Source: Methanothrix sp.
Lineage (GTDB): Archaea; Halobacteriota; Methanosarcinia; Methanotrichales; Methanotrichaceae
DNA: 64,000 bases
Assembly (NCBI GenBank): GCA_963682135.1
Contig: OY821645.1
Location: 2,880,001-2,944,000 of the forward strand
Direction of reading: 5' to 3'
Below, one piece after another: positions 1-58,669 of the stretch. Both the position numbers and the translations under genes were made by a program. Every line of letters starts with the position of its first letter. Within the stretch, counting starts at the first letter, position 1. The notes below the pieces were generated by a model. It searched no databases. It was not told where the DNA came from and saw only the letters and a list, made by a program, of their open reading frames with translations.

Positions 1-449
<449 letters not shown>

Positions 450-575
450 AACGTTATTGGGTATGCGAAACTGCATACCCGTCCCCTTAACCAGTTGGAA
501 GCTGAAAATGTCGACCGAGACCAAACAAGAGAAATTAGCCAGCTATTCTGATTATTAGCTGGGCAATGATAACCC

Positions 576-648
576 GGGCTTGTAGCTCAGCTGGTAGAGC
601 GCCGCCTTTGCAAGGCGGAGGCCCTGGGTTCGAATCCCAGCAAGTCCA
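576..648 (+). tRNA. tRNA-Ala(TGC) in the 16S-23S spacer
   Basis: Cloverleaf GGGCTTG...TAGCTCAGCTGGTAGAGC, anticodon arm CCGCC-TTTGCAA-GGCGG, T-loop GGTTCGAATCC, end CAAGTCCA. Confidence 0.98.
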
Positions 649-729
649 AATTCATATGCACACATTGAGGCAGACTCGATGTGGAAGGGCAGAGGTCCGT
701 TCATTGACGGGACGGTCCTGTGAAGCCGT

Positions 730-771
730 GCACAAGCTTTGCGACCAGACGCTCACTGAGTTTAGTGGGGC
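730..771 (+). other. 5' strand of the 23S processing stem; pairs with about 3668-3714 to form a bulge-helix-bulge
   Basis: TTTGCGACCAGA/TCTGGTCGCAAA and TGAGTTTAGTGGGGC/GCCCCGCTAAACTCG flank a 4-bp helix CGCT/GGCG with 3-nt bulges CAC and AAA. Confidence 0.9.
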
Positions 772-775
772 ATAA

Positions 776-3667
<2,892 letters not shown>

Positions 3668-3719
3668 GCCCCGCTAAACTCGGGCGAAATCTGGTCGCAA
3701 AGCATAAATTGTGCATTAC

Positions 3720-3777
3720 TCCACGGTAAGCTTCCAACGGGGAAGCAATTACTGCCGGTTCGAATCCGGACCATGGA
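3720..3777 (+). ncRNA. tRNA-like (mini-tRNA) element directly upstream of 5S rRNA
   Basis: Acceptor-like stem TCCACGGT/ACCATGGA, full T-arm CCGG-TTCGAAT-CCGG, one extra hairpin GCTTCC/GGAAGC; not a complete cloverleaf. Confidence 0.75.
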
Positions 3778-3780
3778 TTC

Positions 3781-3907
3781 GAGCATAGCGGCCAGAGCGA
3801 CAGGGAGACTCCTGAACCCATTCCGAACTCAGAAGATAAGCCTGCCCACGTTCTGCACTGTACTCAGATGCGCGAGCTCTCGGGAAATGCAGATCGCTGC
3901 TATGCTC
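3781..3907 (+). rRNA. rrf: 5S rRNA
   Basis: Terminal helix GAGCATAGCGGC/GCTGCTATGCTC and conserved CCCATTCCGAACTCAGAAGATAAGCC. Confidence 0.97.
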
Positions 3908-50040: not shown

Positions 50041-50910
50041 ATGTTCTTACTTGGGGAATACTATGAGGATGAGGCCAGGGATATCGTCGATCGGCTTAAA
50101 AAAGTGGGAATGAAGGTGGATATCAGAACCTTCACAGCCGGCGAAATGGAAATCTCCCATCATCTGGAAGGCCGCATGAGTGTGCTCAAAGGGAAACTAA
50201 AGGAAGCTGATTATGCAAGGAACGAGCGATACCTAGATGCCCTGCGAAAGGTTCTGGCGGCGGGAGCCGGACCCGAAGATTTCGGCGAAAAATTTACTCT
50301 GGAGCTTGACCCGCAGATAAACGAGAAGAGAGCCCAGTTCGCTGAGATTTTGAAAGCTGATCTGCCTGAGGAAGAGAGAGAAGCGAAAATGAAGGCCTTT
50401 GCAGGTATAAAGGCTGATCTGCTGGATGTGTACCATGCCGAGGCCTTCATCGACACAGTTCTGGACCGAAATGATATCGGGATCGGAGAATATGTAGGCA
50501 GCAAACTGGACGATCCTATTCTGCGCGTCATTGATGAGAGGGAGGATCTGGAGGAAGAAAGTGATCTGGCCAGGACGACCACGGTCTTCACGGTTGAGCC
50601 GAGGGCCCAGGTCTTTATCGATGAATTTTATGCGGTTCTGGCGGAAGAGCTGGACGAGGAGTTTGAAGATGAATATGAACGGGAGTATCTGTCTCTTGTC
50701 TTTTTAGGAAAACTGATCTCCGACATTAAAGAGCCGTCACAGGGAAAGGTGGATATGGAAGCTTTCCGGGAGAGATGCCGATTTGATATGGAAAAGAAAG
50801 GAGATCTGCTGGAGATAGATGGCAGCGGCGCAGCTCTAGAGCTGGCCAGGTCGCTCGAGAAAAACGGGATAATAAAGGTCAAGGGCGATAGCGTCAAGTG
50901 GAAACGGTAA
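50041..50910 (+). CDS. Acidic hypothetical protein
   Basis: 289-aa ORF with TATA-like TATTTAAG about 25 nt upstream (leaderless). Confidence 0.75.
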   Translation: MFLLGEYYEDEARDIVDRLKKVGMKVDIRTFTAGEMEISHHLEGRMSVLKGKLKEADYARNERYLDALRKVLAAGAGPEDFGEKFTLELDPQINEKRAQFAEILKADLPEEEREAKMKAFAGIKADLLDVYHAEAFIDTVLDRNDIGIGEYVGSKLDDPILRVIDEREDLEEESDLARTTTVFTVEPRAQVFIDEFYAVLAEELDEEFEDEYEREYLSLVFLGKLISDIKEPSQGKVDMEAFRERCRFDMEKKGDLLEIDGSGAALELARSLEKNGIIKVKGDSVKWKR

Positions 50911-51002: not shown

Positions 51003-52571
51003 ATGGCTAGAGGAAAAGGCAATAATTCGGCGAACAGCAAAGGTGCGGATTTAGGTTTTGAAGCCATTCTATGGGCGGCTGCCGATAGGCTGCGAAACAA
51101 TATGGATGCAGCGGAGTACAAGCACGTCGTTCTTGGGCTTATTTTCCTCAAGTACATCTCCGATGCCTTCCAAGAAAGGCATGATCAATTGATCAACGAA
51201 AAAGAGCAGGGAGCCGATCCAGAGGACCCGGATGAGTATCTTTCAGAAAACGTCTTCTGGGTGCCCAAGGAAGCCCGTTGGTCCTTTTTGAAAGCCAATG
51301 CCCGGCAGCCAAAGATAGGAAAAGCAGTAGATGATGCCATGATTGCCATCGAGAGAGATAACAAATCACTCAGAGGTGTCCTGCCCAAGGACTATGCCCG
51401 TCCTGCTCTGGATACTCATAGCATTGGTGATCTGATCGATCTCATCAGCGGGATTGAGATGATAGACAAGAAGGACCGATCAAAAGATGTTCTGGGCGAT
51501 GTCTATCAGTATTTTCTATCTCAGTTTGCATCTTCCGAAGGAAGAAAGGGTGGGCAGTTTTATACACCGCAATGCGTGGTTCAAATTTTGGTTGAGATGC
51601 TAGCGCCCTACAAAGGCCGTGTCTTTGATCCCTGCTGCGGCTCTGGGGGCATGTTTGTTCAGAGCAAAAAGTTCGTGAAGGCGCATGAAGGACGCAGGGA
51701 TGACATCAGCGTTTATGGGCAAGAGTCCAATCCCACGACCTGGAAGCTAGCCAAGATGAACCTGGCCATCCGGGGCATCGACGGAAATTTAGGCCCGGAG
51801 CACGCCGACAGCTTTCACAGGGATCTGCACAAAGATTTAAAGGCGGACTACATCCTGGCCAATCCGCCTTTCAACAGCAGTGACTGGGGTGGGGAACGCC
51901 TGCGCGAGGACGTGCGCTGGAAGTATGGCATCCCGCCGGCGGGCAATGCCAACTTCGCCTGGGTGCAGCATTTCATTTACCATTTAGCCCCTTCGGGCAT
52001 CGCGGGTTTCGTCCTGGCCAATGGCTCCATGTCCTCCAATCAGTCCGGCGAGGGCGAGATCCGCCGGGCCATCATTGAGGCTGATCTGGTAGACTGCATG
52101 GTGGCTCTGCCAGGCCAGCTATTCTACTCCACGCAGATTCCGGCCTGCCTGTGGTTCATAGCACGTGATAGGAAGAATGGAAGATTCAGGGACCGGCGGG
52201 GCCAGACGCTCTTTATCGACGCCCGGAAGATGGGAGTTTTGACCGATCGGGTGCATCGGGACCTGACACCGGAGGAGATCACAAGGATTGCCAGCGTCTA
52301 TCACGCCTGGCGGGGCGATGCAGGTGCTGGTCAGTACGAGGACGTGCCGGGATTTTGCAGGAGCGCAACGCTTGAGGAGATCAGGAAGAACGGCGGCTAC
52401 GTGCTCACGCCCGGTCGCTACGTTGGTGCAGAGGAAGTGGAGGCGGACGGCGAGCTGTTTGAAGAGAAGATGCAGCGACTGACTGCAAAGCTCGGCGAGC
52501 AGTTTCAGGAATCGGCGCGGCTGGAGACAGAGATTCGTGCTAATCTGAAGGGGCTGGGATATGATGTCTGA
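51003..52571 (+). CDS. hsdM: Type I R-M methyltransferase (m6A)
   Basis: [28 protein letters not shown]. Confidence 0.96.
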
Positions 52572-53607
52572 GGAGCGGTTGTTGGATCTGCCCGTTGGCT
52601 ACGCTGCGATTCTGGCAGACTTGAAGGATCAGATTAAAGGTGCCAGGCTAAAAGCAGGGCTGGAAGTAAACCGCGAGCTGGTGCTCTTGTACTGGAGAAT
52701 TGGAAAGCAGATTAGGACGCAGCAGCATGAAGAGGGATGGGGCTCTAAGGTTATTGAACGACTATCTCTAGATCTCCTACGAGAGTTTCCGGAGATGAAG
52801 GGTCTGTCGTCTCGGAATTTGAAGTACATGAGAGCATTTTACGAGGCTTACCCTGATGAAGCAATTGTGCAGCAGCTTGCTGCACAAATTCCATGGTTTC
52901 ATAATTGTGTATTGTTAGATAAAGTTAAACGCCCTGAAGAACGCGTTTGGTATATCCGCCAGAACATCTCCCACGGTTGGAGCAGAAATGTACTGGTCCA
53001 CCAGATCGAGAGCGGCCTGTTCGAGCGACAGGGGCGAGCGCTGGTTAACTTCAACAGAACGCTGCCTGCACCCCAATCTGAGTTGGCCAGGCAGATTCTC
53101 AAAGACCCGTACAACTTCGATTTCCTGACTCTGGGCAAAGAGGCGCAGGAGCGGGATCTGGAAGAGGCACTGCTCAGTCATCTACGGGAGTTCTTGCTGG
53201 AGCTTGGCGTGGGATTTGCCTTTGTGGGAAGCCAGTATCACCTAGAAGTTGGAGATCAGGACTATTATATTGACCTTCTATTTTACCATCTGAATCTGCG
53301 CTGCTATGTGGTTATCGACCTGAAGATCTCAGAGTTTCAGCCTGAGTTTGCGGGGAAGATGAACTTCTATCTCTCTGCCGTGGACGATATCTTGAGGCAT
53401 GCAGAGGATGAGCCATCGATTGGGATTGTGCTCTGCAAGGAAAAGAACCGGGTTATCGTGGAGTATGCATTGAAGGGCATCAATAAACCAATGGGCGTAG
53501 CGGATTATCAGCTCTCCACGGCACTGCCGGAGAATCTCAAAGGAAGCCTGCCAACGATTGAAGAGCTGGAAGCAGAACTGGAAGGGGCAAGGGGAGACGA
53601 AATATGA
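52561..53607 (+). CDS. YhcG / DUF1016 PD-(D/E)XK protein
   Basis: [46 protein letters not shown]. Confidence 0.93.
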
Positions 53608-53823
53608 GAAGAACGATCGGGCATGGAATCTCTTGGGCTTATGTGATGGGCGACATCAACGTATTCAAACTACTTCGTTTCTCTAATGTTTTTGGATTCA
53701 AGATAATCCAGACACTGTCTGGACTACTATTTTGGCTGCACTTGTTTTTGGCCAAATTGAACCAAGCCATACGATTCAGGAGAGAGATTATATCGATTGG
53801 TGAAGTATCAGGGAGAAACAGAG

Positions 53824-54294
53824 ATGACTCATTTTATTGAATGGCTTGGCATTCCTGGTAATGCCGCTTTTGCTGCATCAGTTCTTTCTTTGGTTTCCAT
53901 TGGCATTGCTAGTGCAGCGATGTACACAAGTTGGAGAACCCAGAAACGGCAAGTTGAGATCGAGGAGATACGAGAAAGAGACAGACAAAGGGGGATGCGT
54001 AAAGCAGATCTCGTAGCAAGACTAAAGGATGACGATGGAAGGGATCTTTTGGTCATTGAGAACAAAGGACCTGCGGAGGCTAGTGAGATAGTAATACTTC
54101 TCAATGGCAAACCACTATCTGAATACCAGGGGTTTGTGGGTGGCCAACCGGATATTCGAAGGGTGGGACCATATTCATCTTATCACTACCTCATGGCACT
54201 TACTATGGGTATGGACCTTTCCTTTGAGATTACTATTGCATGGGTTGACGATTCAGGAGAAGCTGGGCGTTATCTGACAACCTTAACTTACTAG
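53824..54294 (+). CDS. Hypothetical protein with N-terminal TM helix and beta-rich C-domain
   Basis: FAASVLSLVSIGIASAAMY TM segment, charged helix, LVIENKGPAEA. Confidence 0.65.
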   Translation: MTHFIEWLGIPGNAAFAASVLSLVSIGIASAAMYTSWRTQKRQVEIEEIRERDRQRGMRKADLVARLKDDDGRDLLVIENKGPAEASEIVILLNGKPLSEYQGFVGGQPDIRRVGPYSSYHYLMALTMGMDLSFEITIAWVDDSGEAGRYLTTLTY

Positions 54295-54363: not shown

Positions 54364-55731
54364 ATGGTTCTTGAAAAAACCTCTCCGTTGGGACCACTTC
54401 CATATGGCTGGAAATTGGTCCCCTTAGCTGACCTTACTCTAAAAATTGGGAGCGGAGCTACACCGCTCGGCGGAGATGCAGTATATTTGGAAGCCAGAGA
54501 CAAGTATGCGTTGATCCACAGTCAGAATGTCTATGATCGAAGATTTGACTCACAGAACCTTGCTTTCATATCGGACCAAGATGCACATCGCTTGGATGGA
54601 GTTAAGGTACGGCCAAGAGATATTCTGCTAAATATAACTGGAGATGGAATTACATTTGCTAGAGCCTGTATGGTAGAAGAAACGATACTTCCTGCGAGAG
54701 TTAACCAACATGTCTCTATCATCAGAGCCAAAGAAGACTTGCTGGATCCAGGATTTCTATTTTCCTATTTAACTCACCCCCAAATAAAATATTATATGGA
54801 GAGTTTTAATGCAGGAGGAAGCCGTCGTGCGCTGACCAAAGGACATATTGAGTCTTTCCAGATACCGCTTCCACCAATTAATGAACAGCGCGCCATCGCT
54901 CACATACTCGGCTCTCTGGATGACAAGATCGAGGCCAACCGCCGCATGAACGAGACCCTGGAGGCCATGGCCCGCACGCTCTTCAAGTCCTGGTTCGTTG
55001 ACTTCGACCCTGTGCGCGCGCGGGCGGAGGGGCGGGCACCCGCTGGCATGGGCGCAGAGACGGCGGCGCTGTTTCCCGATAGCTTCGAGGAGCAGGAGGG
55101 GCGGATTGTGCCGAGGGGATGGAGGGTTGGAAGGGTAAGCGACCTTTGCAGCGCGATCTATAGTGGAGGAACACCAAGTACAGATAGACCTGAGTATTGG
55201 AATGGTGAGATCTCGTGGCTTTCATCTGGCGAGACAAGAGAGAAGTTCATTATCGGCACAAAGAGACAAATCACAACTGCTGGTGTGTCGAACTCTAGTG
55301 CGCGGCTGGCACTCTCTCGATCGACCGTGATAGCAAGCGCAGGGCAGGGAAATACTCGTGGTCAAACATCTATGCTTACGATAGATTGTTACATTAATCA
55401 GTCAGTGGTAGCGCTCGTTGCGAAACCAGAAATTAGTTCTCAATATCACCTTTTCTTTGATCTCGAACGACGCTATGAAGAGTTCAGGAGGATTTCTGAT
55501 GCACACAGTTCTCGCGGAAGTTTGACGACGAAATTGCTGGCTGGATTAAATGCAATGATGCCAGAGCACTCAGTCATTCATTGTTTTGATGATGTTGTCG
55601 GGGCAATGATAGAGCGAGTTATAGGAAACCTTCAGGAATCCCATACACTTGCAGCTTTGCGGGATTCGTTGTTGCCCAAATTCATTAGTGGAGAGATGTG
55701 CATTAATGATGCAAAGACTTTATTATTGTGA
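54364..55731 (+). CDS. hsdS: Type I R-M specificity subunit
   Basis: Two TRDs (GSGATP, SGGTPS), central PPINEQRAIAHILGSLDDKIE, end LRDSLLPKFISGE. Confidence 0.95.
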   Translation: MVLEKTSPLGPLPYGWKLVPLADLTLKIGSGATPLGGDAVYLEARDKYALIHSQNVYDRRFDSQNLAFISDQDAHRLDGVKVRPRDILLNITGDGITFARACMVEETILPARVNQHVSIIRAKEDLLDPGFLFSYLTHPQIKYYMESFNAGGSRRALTKGHIESFQIPLPPINEQRAIAHILGSLDDKIEANRRMNETLEAMARTLFKSWFVDFDPVRARAEGRAPAGMGAETAALFPDSFEEQEGRIVPRGWRVGRVSDLCSAIYSGGTPSTDRPEYWNGEISWLSSGETREKFIIGTKRQITTAGVSNSSARLALSRSTVIASAGQGNTRGQTSMLTIDCYINQSVVALVAKPEISSQYHLFFDLERRYEEFRRISDAHSSRGSLTTKLLAGLNAMMPEHSVIHCFDDVVGAMIERVIGNLQESHTLAALRDSLLPKFISGEMCINDAKTLLL

Positions 55732-55770
55732 CTATAAACGGAATATTAATGCAAAAAAATAAAGAGGAAT

Positions 55771-56163
55771 TTGATGTCACCTAAACGAGTATTCATTAGT
55801 TTTGATTTTGACCATGATGAAGCCCTTCGTAGTCTCTTGGTAGGTCAAGCAAAGAATCCTGAATCTCCATTTAGCATTTCAGATTGGTCCGTTAAGGAAC
55901 CTATGACAGGCAATTGGAAGGAGAAGGTGCGTGAGCGTATTCGCAGAACGGATTTGACTATTGTCATATGTGGCGAGTGGACTCATACGGCCACAGGCGT
56001 AGCAGAAGAGTTGAAGATTACTCGCGAAGAAAGCAAACCATATTTCTTGCTCAGTGGATACGGTGATAAAACCTGCACCAAACCAACTTCTGCATTATCG
56101 TCTGATGGGATTTACAAATGGACATGGGATAATCTGAAATTACTTATCGACGGTAGGAGGTAA
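55771..56163 (+). CDS. Stand-alone TIR domain protein (MTH538/ThsB-like)
   Basis: RVFISFDFDHD, DWSVKEP, TIVICGEWT, GVAEEL with a Glu at the expected catalytic position. Confidence 0.85.
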   Translation: MMSPKRVFISFDFDHDEALRSLLVGQAKNPESPFSISDWSVKEPMTGNWKEKVRERIRRTDLTIVICGEWTHTATGVAEELKITREESKPYFLLSGYGDKTCTKPTSALSSDGIYKWTWDNLKLLIDGRR

Positions 56164-56166
56164 TAA

Positions 56167-56658
56167 ATGGTCGGTGAGCCTCCATCCCAACTGATTCGGC
56201 AGACGAAGGAAAGCTATGGTGAATCCTTCAAGACGGACCTCTTCGAGCAGTACAAGCTTTATATTGCGTCATCTGAGAAGATAAGCGAGCGACGGGTATC
56301 GTCGAACAATTACCTGCTTACTGTCAACGCATTTCTTGTAACTTCGTATGGGTTGCTCGCTGCAAGCCAATACAAAAGCTACTGGATAATTTTGGTGCCA
56401 ATTGCTGGCGTTCTCGTCTCTTTGACGTGGTATCGAATCATTACCTCATATCGTAATCTTAACCGTGTAAAATTTAAAGTAATCAATGAGATCGAGAAAC
56501 AGATGCCTGCTGCGCTTTACGAGTATGAGTGGAAAATAGCGGAAGAGGGAAAAGGCAAGACATACCGACCATTATCACATTTGGAGCAATGGATTCCGAT
56601 TATTTTTATAATACTCTATGGTTCAGTTACGCTAATTAATTTAGTGTGTGTGATCTGA
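56167..56658 (+). CDS. Small multi-TM membrane protein (resembles the RipA-type oligomeric membrane family)
   Basis: FEQYKLY..SSEKISERR..SNNYLLTVN, TM helices, WYRIITSYRNLNRVKFKVINEIEK, C-terminal TM helix. Confidence 0.78.
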   Translation: MVGEPPSQLIRQTKESYGESFKTDLFEQYKLYIASSEKISERRVSSNNYLLTVNAFLVTSYGLLAASQYKSYWIILVPIAGVLVSLTWYRIITSYRNLNRVKFKVINEIEKQMPAALYEYEWKIAEEGKGKTYRPLSHLEQWIPIIFIILYGSVTLINLVCVI

Positions 56659-56777
56659 TGATGTCGATTATCGAATCAGATGTTGAGCCCGCCGCCTTCT
56701 ATCTCGGCCCACTGCCAAAGTTTATTCCCTATGAGATTATGATAGATATGAAGAATCCGTTGGAGACCAAAACATGA
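56658..56777 (+). pseudogene. Probable hsdR 5' stub
   Basis: TGATG-coupled ORF MMSIIESDVEPAAFYLGP resembling HsdR N-termini (xxESxVExAA...GP); no helicase motifs follow. Confidence 0.5.
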
Positions 56778-58033
56778 CTAAAGGCGACCGCGTCAAGCAA
56801 TCGGTTCCAAGAATCGAGTATTTGAAAATAAAAAACTATAGAGCCCTACATAACCTTGAGCTGAGAGGCATCACTCCTCTAACGGTTTTTCTTGGGCCAA
56901 ACGGCAGCGGAAAATCTACCATCTTCGATGTTTTTGCCTTCCTATCGGAATGCTTTTCAGTGGGCCTTAGAAAAGCACTTGATAAACGGGGTCGGTTCAA
57001 GGAGCTTCGTACTCGTGGCTCCAGCGGTCCTATTGAGATCGAGCTGAAATATCGCGAGAGAAGTGACATGCCTCTCATCACCTATCATCTCTCCCTTGAC
57101 GAAGGCATCACAGGCCCTTATGTCGTGGAGGAATGGCTGCAATGGAGGAGAGGTCAGCAAGGAAAACCCTTTAGGTTTCTCGATTTTAAGAATGGAGAGG
57201 GACAGGTAATTGCTGGAGAAAATCCGGTTGAAATCGGCGATCGGATCCATGAGATGCTCACGTCTTCGGATATGCTTGCGGTGAATGCTCTTGGCCAGCT
57301 TGCTAAAAATCCCAGAGTCAGTGCTCTGCGCCAGTTCGTAACCGGATGGTACCTTTCATATCTTACTGCAGATAGCACGCGAGGATTCTCTGAGCCAGGT
57401 CCTGAGGAGCGACTGTCTGCAACCGGCGATAACCTGCCCAATGTTATTCAGTATTTAAAAGAACAGCATAAGGATCGTTTGAACCTGATTTTGGATACAT
57501 TATCACATCGTGTTCCTAGACTTGAGAAAGTTGACTCCGAATTTATGCCCGACGGTAGGCTTCTTTTGCAGATTAAGGACGCTCCTTTTGAGCAGCCGAT
57601 ACTGGCGAAATTCGCATCTGACGGCACCCTTAAAATGCTGGCCTACCTCACTTTGCTCTATGATCCACATCCACCTCAGCTCATAGGAATTGAAGAGCCG
57701 GAAAATCAGCTTCACCCCAGGCTCTTGCCGGAACTCGCAGAAGAGTGCAGACAGGCAACAGCCCGAACCCAGCTTATGGTCACTTCCCATTCACCTTTCT
57801 TTGTAAATGGCCTGAGGCCAGAGGAGCTTTGGGTACTCTACAGAGATGAACAGGGTTACACACAGGCACGTCGTTCTGCAGATATGCGAGGCATTAAAGA
57901 GTTCATGGATGAGGGCGCACAGCTTGGTTACCTCTGGATGGAGGGTTACTTTGAGGTGGGCGATCCATTGACGGCGTCAGGTGGTCCAAAACACCCATCA
58001 TTAAGCCAAAATGCAAGGCTCCAAGCGGAGTAA
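56774..58033 (+). CDS. AAA_21 / ABC-type ATPase (defence-associated)
   Basis: [20 protein letters not shown] signature, [16 protein letters not shown]. Confidence 0.92.
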
Positions 58034-58039
58034 TGATCC

Positions 58040-58669
58040 ATGCATATTATATTTTTAGTGGAAGAACTCTCTGCAGAGGCCGCCCTCCTCAACATAGTGC
58101 CCAAGATTCTGGGTGCAAGTGCATCTTTCGAGATCCATCCTTATCAGTGCAAAGACGATCTTCTCTCAAAATTGCCACGTGTTATGCGAGCCTACGCTAA
58201 ATGGTTGCCTGACGACTGGCGCATCGTGGTCCTGGTTGACGAAGATCGATCCGATTGTGATGCACTCAAGGAAAGAATGGAGCAGTCAGCAGTTGCTGCA
58301 AGACTGATAACCAAAACGATGGCTGGCAGCTCAAACCGCCATGCAAAGTTCCAGGTCTTGAACCGAATTTCCATAGAAGAGCTTGAAGCATGGTTTTTCG
58401 GGGATGTTCATGCACTCAATCAGGCTTATACGAGGGTTCCCAAGACACTTGGAGGCAGATCAAGATATAAAGATCCAGATTCAATTAAGGGAGGAACATG
58501 GGAGTCACTGGAACGTGAGCTAAAAAAGTCCGGGTATTTTCCCGGCGGTCTGCGCAAAATAGAAGCGGCAAAGACTATTTCCGCATTCATGGAACCGGAA
58601 ATAAATAATTCAAAAAGTTTTCAAGTATTCAGAGACGGCCTGAGAGAGATGGTTAGATGGGGGATATAA
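58040..58669 (+). CDS. DUF4276-like TOPRIM-fold protein
   Basis: IFLVEELS, VVLVDED, EELEAWFFGD, NNSKSF. Confidence 0.8.
   Translation: MHIIFLVEELSAEAALLNIVPKILGASASFEIHPYQCKDDLLSKLPRVMRAYAKWLPDDWRIVVLVDEDRSDCDALKERMEQSAVAARLITKTMAGSSNRHAKFQVLNRISIEELEAWFFGDVHALNQAYTRVPKTLGGRSRYKDPDSIKGGTWESLERELKKSGYFPGGLRKIEAAKTISAFMEPEINNSKSFQVFRDGLREMVRWGI

Follow-up and report, generated by a model that had tools for sequence, protein, structure and literature searches.

Thoeris systems join TIR proteins, which make a signal, to effectors of several families, and the catalogue compiled by Yirmiya et al. 2025 (bioRxiv 10.64898/2025.12.03.692087) comprises, in the accessible part of its text, 11 verified and 29 predicted types, several of them with membrane effectors. 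In type V, the closest described system to the one treated here, TIR-made 3'-cyclic ADP-ribose (3'cADPR) activates ThsF, a protein of the family DUF2270 (PF10028) with three transmembrane (TM) segments, modelled in the same text as a ring of seven protomers that have positively charged pockets between them on the cytoplasmic side. Here we analyse a stretch of 64,000 nucleotides (nt) from Methanothrix sp. (contig OY821645.1), called the window throughout and used in full as the reference for all positions, in which a small TIR gene is directly followed by a gene for a membrane protein of the Pfam family 8xMP. We consider it probable that the two genes form a Thoeris-type antiviral signalling cassette, acquired horizontally and embedded in a type I restriction-modification (R-M) cluster. 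The pair is laid out as follows, with protein lengths in amino acids (aa).

55774..56163, + strand: thsB-like TIR gene, single-domain product of 129 aa, candidate catalytic Glu at E79
56167..56658, + strand: 8xMP-family membrane protein gene, putative effector, 163 aa
56156..56169, + strand: TIR/8xMP junction, with GGAGG, TAA TAA and then the ATG of the 8xMP gene
55732..55773, + strand: spacer between hsdS and the TIR gene, AT-rich, 42 nt, containing GAGG at 55764-55767

With type V, as far as the accessible description goes, the window locus shares the plan of a two-gene operon for a TIR and a three-TM protein and a setting in defence islands, whereas the effector family differs: DUF2270 (PF10028) was found in 0 of 57 8xMP members at E up to 1, and the likeness is architectural only. 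The signals may differ as well; ThsF responds to 3'cADPR in that description, and the TIR subfamily of the window has Gly in place of the Trp that precedes the candidate catalytic Glu. Types II (Macro-TM) and VII (SLATT), as presented in the same text, likewise combine a TIR signal maker with an effector that spans the membrane and is taken to breach it. Unlike the type II effector, 8xMP contains no Macro domain; as for type VII, SLATT_1 gave weak, sub-threshold matches in 2 of the 57 members (best E 0.0029) and S_4TM in one, the window protein matching neither. In contrast to type I, there is no SIR2-SLOG effector (ThsA), and neither SIR2 nor SLOG was found by Pfam or PADLOC in the genes neighbouring the pair. 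BcTir/BcTpr of Bacillus cereus (PDB 8fz9; bioRxiv 10.1101/2023.05.26.542521) is likewise an anti-phage operon of two genes, one of them for a small stand-alone TIR; by the available text of that preprint, BcTpr is a soluble glycosidase-TPR protein that makes a cADPR isomer, whereas 8xMP is a membrane protein.

The original prediction had described an effector that could not be placed in the canonical Thoeris classes. 8xMP indeed lies outside the Thoeris effector families named in the accessible text of Yirmiya et al. (SIR2-SLOG, Macro, caspase, DUF2270, DUF6650, SLATT and CMP hydrolase), but it is not without a family, being recognised by Pfam. Given the expanded catalogue, we view TIR-8xMP as a further variant of a known theme and not as a new class; it may be among the 29 predicted types or, so far as the accessible text allows a comparison, be identical with type IX (ThsJ). 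A tblastn search with the Clostridium 8xMP, which looked for a link to type IX, returned no Bacillus plasmid. The suspicion that the system was already catalogued was not borne out for PADLOC-DB v2.0.0, in which the window 8xMP protein had no match at E 0.1, the TIR protein had weak ones only, and no single system was matched by both genes; across the 57 8xMP members, the same database gave four single marginal matches (best E 0.0013), and no NCBIfam model matched the window 8xMP protein. The literature searched contained no published work on TIR-8xMP or on TIR modules within type I R-M operons, and we found no published experimental study of 8xMP as an effector family. If our reading is right, TIR immune signalling would gain one more class of effector, 8xMP, which is very widespread; a Pfam family so far bearing only a structural name would acquire a function, and the compact pair would allow the opening of a membrane ring by a small nucleotide to be studied.

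TIR-8xMP pairing is not due to chance, and the pair is strictly conserved across bacteria and archaea. A scan of species-representative genomes with an 8xMP profile found at least 541 relatives among 600 candidate stretches, and the best 80 of these (at least 541) were used as loci. They come from many phyla and encode proteins 42-75% identical to the window 8xMP by tblastn; in all 80, an open reading frame (ORF) recognised by a profile of the window-type TIR lies directly upstream of 8xMP on the same strand, the copies in L002 and L013 being broken. Seven loci (L024, L030, L043, L044, L045, L056 and L071) have two full TIR genes ahead of one 8xMP gene, L069 holds two complete TIR-8xMP pairs, and L058 and L072 carry an extra weak TIR-like ORF downstream. 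Pairwise distances of the two proteins are correlated (Mantel r 0.50, reached in 0 of 999 permutations; n=79, with L002 and L013 dropped), which fits inheritance as a unit, although such a correlation does not by itself prove co-evolution.

The same arrangement recurs among distant homologues on plasmids, where 35 records carry 8xMP proteins of 23-41% identity. In 12 of the 16 contexts looked at, a TIR is encoded directly upstream, as a small gene in 11 (H1, H6, H7, H9, H14, H19, H20, H21, H24, H29 and H30), and five of five haloarchaeal plasmids looked at show this small-gene form. The remaining case (H13/L097, Rhizobium leguminosarum plasmid NZ_CP050092.1, 1631-5738) has a 1215-aa TIR-NB-ARC-WD40 protein that ends 2 nt before 8xMP; this is an NLR-like sensor equipped with a TIR and paired with the same membrane family. 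Besides, two natural TIR-8xMP fusions exist, one distant (P0375, 300 aa) and one 68% identical (P0391, 295 aa). Taken with the 80 loci, these plasmid contexts and fusions substantiate the earlier description of the two genes as one module. On a Clostridium perfringens plasmid (L088, NZ_CP065633.1, 1501-3814), genes for a caspase-family protein, a TIR, 8xMP and a second TIR follow one another on one strand; the row resembles a Thoeris locus with two effectors, and at the end of this stretch of the plasmid a cpb2 toxin gene is annotated. On a Paenarthrobacter plasmid (L092), too, a caspase-family gene lies near a TIR-8xMP pair, 2 kb upstream of it.

Both families are large. A word-index search gave 298 close 8xMP clusters, of which the best 120 listed are 65-100% identical. 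A HMMER scan for 8xMP reached 2596 clusters (formed at 50% identity) at E<=0.001, 1375 at 1e-10 and 42 at 1e-30. TIR homologues fall into 1945 clusters in the word-index search, mostly of 129 aa, the best 120 of the 1945 being 73-100% identical. The few named entries in these two listings belong to Gemmatimonadaceae, Burkholderiales, Poribacteria, Planctomycetota, Dehalococcoidia and Caldiserica, and homologues at 88-95% identity are among the closest.

This length bears on the start of the TIR gene. The ORF listing places it at TTG 55771, giving the 130 aa of the original prediction, whereas nearly all homologues are 129 aa long from ATG 55774, which lies 6 nt past the GAGG at 55764-55767; because of these homologues and this spacing, the 129-aa product is the likelier one, while the assignment as a stand-alone ThsB-like TIR holds by Pfam family and fold. 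The gene stops at TAA 56161-56163, a second TAA follows, and the 8xMP gene begins at ATG 56167, with the 3-nt gap that had been reported. A GGAGG (56156-56160) falls within the 3' end of the TIR gene, and the layout of the junction suggests that translation of TIR and 8xMP may be coupled. Under a start rule that admits only ATG, the gap is 2-8 nt in 62 of 80 related loci, most often 3 nt (31 loci); the rule chose an internal Met in 11 of the 80, and seven have other values. The cassette totals a compact 292 residues. The pair could possess its own promoter within the 55732..55773 spacer, where a sigma-70 scan of the + strand, which does not cover archaeal promoters, returned nothing.

The membrane protein matches the Pfam 8xMP family (PF24838) with 133.3 bits against a cut-off of 30, over profile positions 1-134 of 136, and all 57 aligned relatives match it as well; the full title of the family is 'Octameric membrane protein family', and 'octameric' is used here on the strength of that name alone. 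An AlphaFold monomer model built from the 57 relatives has a pLDDT (predicted local distance difference test) of 88 and four long helices (21-65, 71-110, 117-128 and 136-162), three of them of membrane length. Hydropathy windows exceed 1.6 in helices 2 and 4, and the first membrane stretch is more polar. In agreement with the multi-TM protein originally described, SIR2, SLOG and Macro domains were all absent from the 163-aa protein in the Pfam and PADLOC scans. Lys and Arg residues, seven in the N-terminal 45 positions and nine in the 94-135 loop, together with the loop lengths, of which that at 66-70 is short, point to a predicted topology with a cytoplasmic N-terminus, three spans, a basic cytoplasmic 94-135 loop and an external C-terminus. 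In an alignment of the 57 relatives (33-93% identity), the invariant or near-invariant columns are Q28, Y29, S40, R42, R43, G81, W88, N99, K102, E110, P114, E121, W122, E140 and P144, and most of these residues are predicted to be cytoplasmic and close to the membrane boundary. By analogy with ThsF, they may form a nucleotide pocket. Protein-atlas clusters without PF24838 score at best 0.81; one at 0.76 is tagged PycTM, a family present on 11% of its members, and serves as a lead only.

The TIR protein scores 34.6 bits with Pfam ThsB_TIR (PF08937), above the cut-off of 21.2; its matches to a SLOG model (18.7 bits against 25.3) and to TIR_2 stay below threshold, and an NCBIfam search of it gave no match. 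By sequence, its only solved relatives are BcTir (8fz9, E 3.8e-6) and, marginally, MTH538. One of five AlphaFold models (22 aligned homologues) reached a pLDDT of 82, the remaining four staying below 50, and the fold matched 8fz9 best (E 3e-8, TM-score 0.72), followed by EcThsB (8wcf), the SARM1 TIR, TIR-STING and the SPARTA TIR. The Glu noted earlier at the expected catalytic position, which is E79 when the protein is counted as 129 aa, occurs without exception in the 79 intact sequences (the window and 78 loci; the fragmentary L002 and L013 were excluded) and likewise in nine of nine distant TIRs that accompany distant 8xMP proteins. In alignments, EcThsB places the first Glu of its KYEIE stretch opposite E79, and BcTir its E82.

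In the reading that we favour, the TIR would be both sensor and signal maker and, on infection, would cleave NAD+ through Glu79 and release a small molecule derived from ADP-ribose. 8xMP would form a ring-shaped homo-oligomer in the cytoplasmic membrane and bind this signal through Q28, Y29, K30, R42, R43, N99, K102, E121 and W122, which would face the cytoplasm at the membrane boundary. The ring would then open or rearrange, and the resulting loss of membrane integrity or potential would bring growth stop or death before virus progeny are made.

A direction from TIR to 8xMP is suggested by the loci with several TIR genes, by the row of caspase, TIR, 8xMP and TIR, and by the TIR-NB-ARC-WD40 partner. 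Multi-ThsB Thoeris loci have several TIR genes per effector, and since the TIR-NB-ARC-WD40 protein already contains a sensor, 8xMP is the sole candidate effector left at that locus. A caspase-like protease, for its part, is the type IV Thoeris effector in the accessible text of Yirmiya et al. (10.64898/2025.12.03.692087). The same evidence bears on an exchange of roles, in which 8xMP would be a membrane sensor or anchor responding to envelope or membrane perturbation and the TIR an NAD+-depleting killer. In CBASS, Pycsar and TIR-Argonaute systems, TIRs do work as effectors that deplete NAD+ (10.64898/2025.12.03.692087, in its accessible text), and in certain giant proteins a C-terminal 8xMP looks like an anchor; but the TIR-NB-ARC-WD40 partner already includes sensor and switch, several TIR genes per 8xMP are the pattern of sensors feeding one effector, and the most conserved 8xMP residues, being charged or aromatic and predicted to be cytoplasmic, suit ligand binding better than sensing of the outside. 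We consider such an exchange quite improbable.

Several findings weigh against a TIR that signals to a membrane ring. On the side of 8xMP, no nucleotide-binding domain was recognised in the protein, a search of the Protein Data Bank (PDB) by sequence gave nothing at E 10, and fold comparison yielded no relative either there (best E 0.89) or among the viral models of BFVD (best E 0.15). An adjacent TIR is missing from four of the 16 plasmid contexts (H2, H8, H10 and H17): the neighbour in H2 is a 449-aa protein with no Pfam match, the TIR gene in H8 lies 2.5 kb upstream, and 8xMP stands between transposases in H10 and beside DUF4328 in H17. The giants mentioned above (P0353, 1724 aa; P0379, 1546 aa) are NosD/beta-helix/PQQ beta-propeller proteins with a C-terminal 8xMP and no TIR, and are possibly gene-calling artefacts. 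On the side of the TIR, the PADLOC ThsB models match only weakly (best E 1.5e-4; PDC-M50B, E 0.0019), and the position four residues before the Glu is Gly (G75) in 78 of 79 sequences of the window subfamily. BcTir and EcThsB have Trp there, as part of the W-x-x-x-E motif of TIR NADases, and the nine distant 8xMP-paired TIRs divide into four with Trp and five with Gly. Judged by this substitution, the chemistry of the window subfamily may be unusual or absent; a different reaction product, perhaps one not described so far, could also be its consequence. Moreover, in the available text of the BcTir preprint (10.1101/2023.05.26.542521), BcTir lacks NADase activity and acts in complex with its partner, the catalytic Glu of SARM1 is set opposite K37 of BcTir, and E82 is merely a possible inhibitor contact; under that alignment the window TIR carries Ser at the catalytic position. 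Because of the alignment to EcThsB, and contrary to the alignment in that preprint, we favour E79 as the catalytic Glu.

In one rival reading the TIR works by contact, as a non-enzymatic or weakly enzymatic subunit on the cytoplasmic face of the 8xMP ring that holds it closed or opens it, with no diffusible signal. The reported behaviour of BcTir, the nearest solved relative, and the Gly in place of Trp would suit such a subunit, as would the two natural fusions, which fix a covalent 1:1 link, and the 3-nt junction with its internal GGAGG, which suggests coupled and near-equimolar synthesis. Yet the invariance of the Glu in all 79 and all nine sequences is hard to reconcile with a pure adaptor, and the two-TIR loci, the caspase-family locus and the TIR-NB-ARC-WD40 partner better match a shared diffusible signal, so we hold contact without a signal to be unlikely. 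A prediction of the TIR and 8xMP complex scored 0.00 against a mark of 0.32, which speaks neither for nor against binding.

Turning to the surroundings, the defence cluster in which the pair had been placed is present, in the order hsdM, PDC-S02, 165-aa ORF, hsdS, TIR, 8xMP, HEC-01A and HEC-01B.

50041-50910: 289-aa acidic protein directly upstream of hsdM, no match in Pfam, PADLOC or NCBIfam; GC content (GC) 0.497, at the low-GC edge of the island
51003..52571, + strand: hsdM, type I R-M methylase (Pfam N6_Mtase, 361.5 bits, and HsdM_N; PADLOC MTase_I, E 4.6e-232)
52561-53607: YhcG-like PD-(D/E)xK protein (PADLOC PDC-S02, E 8.9e-159), overlapping the end of hsdM by 11 nt
53797-54294: 165-aa ORF, N-terminal stretch hydrophobic, unmatched in Pfam, PADLOC and NCBIfam
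54364..55731, + strand: hsdS, immediately preceding the pair, type I specificity subunit (Pfam Methylase_S; PADLOC Specificity_I, E 9.8e-122)
56774-58033, + strand: HEC-01A, ABC-type ATPase (PADLOC E 3.2e-168; Pfam AAA_21)
58040-58669, + strand: HEC-01B, DUF4276 (PADLOC E 4e-87; Pfam DUF4276)

Type I genes were counted within 6 kb of the pair in the 80 loci by phmmer, using the window HsdM and HsdS and, for HsdR, a 1062-aa protein of L001 that carries Pfam HSDR_N, SWI2_SNF2 and T1RH-like_C. At least one of the three occurs in 61 of 80 loci, all three in 30 and none in 19. Sixty of the 80 have an HsdS-like gene upstream on the same strand, 37 have an HsdM-like gene, and 43 have an HsdR-like gene downstream on the same strand, which starts at most 100 nt past the 8xMP stop in 21 of these 43. 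HsdS ends at most 100 nt before the TIR start in only 6 of its 60 loci, so other genes often intervene. Beyond HsdS, HsdR and HsdM, no conserved third gene emerged, since no family is present in more than 19 of 80 loci and the top one resembles antisense ORFs; for this reason we take the pair to be self-contained. A homologue of the 165-aa ORF occurs in one of the 80. In the window itself hsdR was not found (tblastn best E 0.94 over the 64 kb), and the cluster may be a methylase only or have its hsdR elsewhere in the genome. HEC-01A/B, a separate candidate defence pair, occupies the spot where 43 of 80 related loci carry hsdR.

An abortive-infection-type module within a type I operon is known from the EcoprrI locus, where PrrC, a single tRNA-cleaving ATPase, is restrained by the R-M enzyme, and TIR-8xMP, a candidate module of this type, is placed similarly beside hsdS and hsdR. 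By analogy, TIR-8xMP might guard the host type I enzyme, staying silent while R-M works and firing when an anti-restriction protein of the virus disables restriction; failed restriction would then lead to TIR signalling and membrane-mediated suicide. The frequent HsdS upstream (60/80) and HsdR downstream (43/80, in 21 of them at most 100 nt away) speak for such a guard, as does the row of hsdR, TIR, 8xMP and a PIN_12-domain protein on one strand of a Polaromonas plasmid (L084, NZ_MG869622.1, 1-4531). Against it stand the 19 loci without type I genes within 6 kb, the lack of hsdR in the window and the other contexts of distant members, and we rate it as rather unlikely. With the pair so often lodged between hsdS and hsdR, it can be tested directly whether restriction failure is linked to TIR signalling. 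In the accessible text of Payne et al. (bioRxiv 10.1101/2024.01.29.577857), PrrC is labelled as almost exclusively embedded in type I R-M, most genes carried within R-M loci of type I or within BREX and DISARM loci are argued to be defensive, and HEC-01 gave no protection in the assays reported.

Plasmid copies of 8xMP, in turn, neighbour toxin-antitoxin, PIN, HEPN, caspase and nuclease genes. Such neighbours, like the embedding of 61 of 80 loci in type I operons, argue against a non-defensive role, in which 8xMP would serve membrane or envelope housekeeping and the TIR would regulate that process. This role is suggested by the nearest protein-atlas clusters, which carry PF24838 on 90-93% of their members and bear the automatic name 'RipA family octameric membrane protein', and the four plasmid contexts without a neighbouring TIR would suit it. 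RipA of Francisella is a cytoplasmic-membrane protein required for intracellular growth, and we know of no link between RipA and a TIR; it shares with 8xMP the family label alone, whereas the window subfamily appears mobile and is embedded in R-M loci. Low GC and the 63-75% identity between methanogen and bacteria also tell against housekeeping, which we regard as highly improbable.

Both genes are AT-richer than hsdM, as first remarked: GC is 0.428 for TIR and 0.425 for 8xMP, against 0.543 in hsdM and roughly 0.55 in the flanking genes measured, which encode formylmethanofuran dehydrogenase subunit A and formate dehydrogenase alpha. The pair of this methanogen is 63-70% identical to those of many bacterial phyla in alignments and up to 75% by tblastn. 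Low GC and high identity between an archaeon and bacterial phyla together point to a mobile accessory cassette, and we infer that the pair was acquired horizontally; it would be a clear case of transfer of an immune module across domains, at 63-75% identity to distant bacterial phyla. The archaeal host that had been proposed is confirmed, the window containing an archaeal rRNA operon and methanogen-type genes that identify a methanogenic archaeon, but the system is not peculiar to it, as the distant pairs of the haloarchaeal plasmids indicate. The operon opens the window.

1-3905: archaeal rRNA operon, with a partial 16S 3' end, a tRNA at 576-648, 23S at 771-3672 and 5S at 3784-3905

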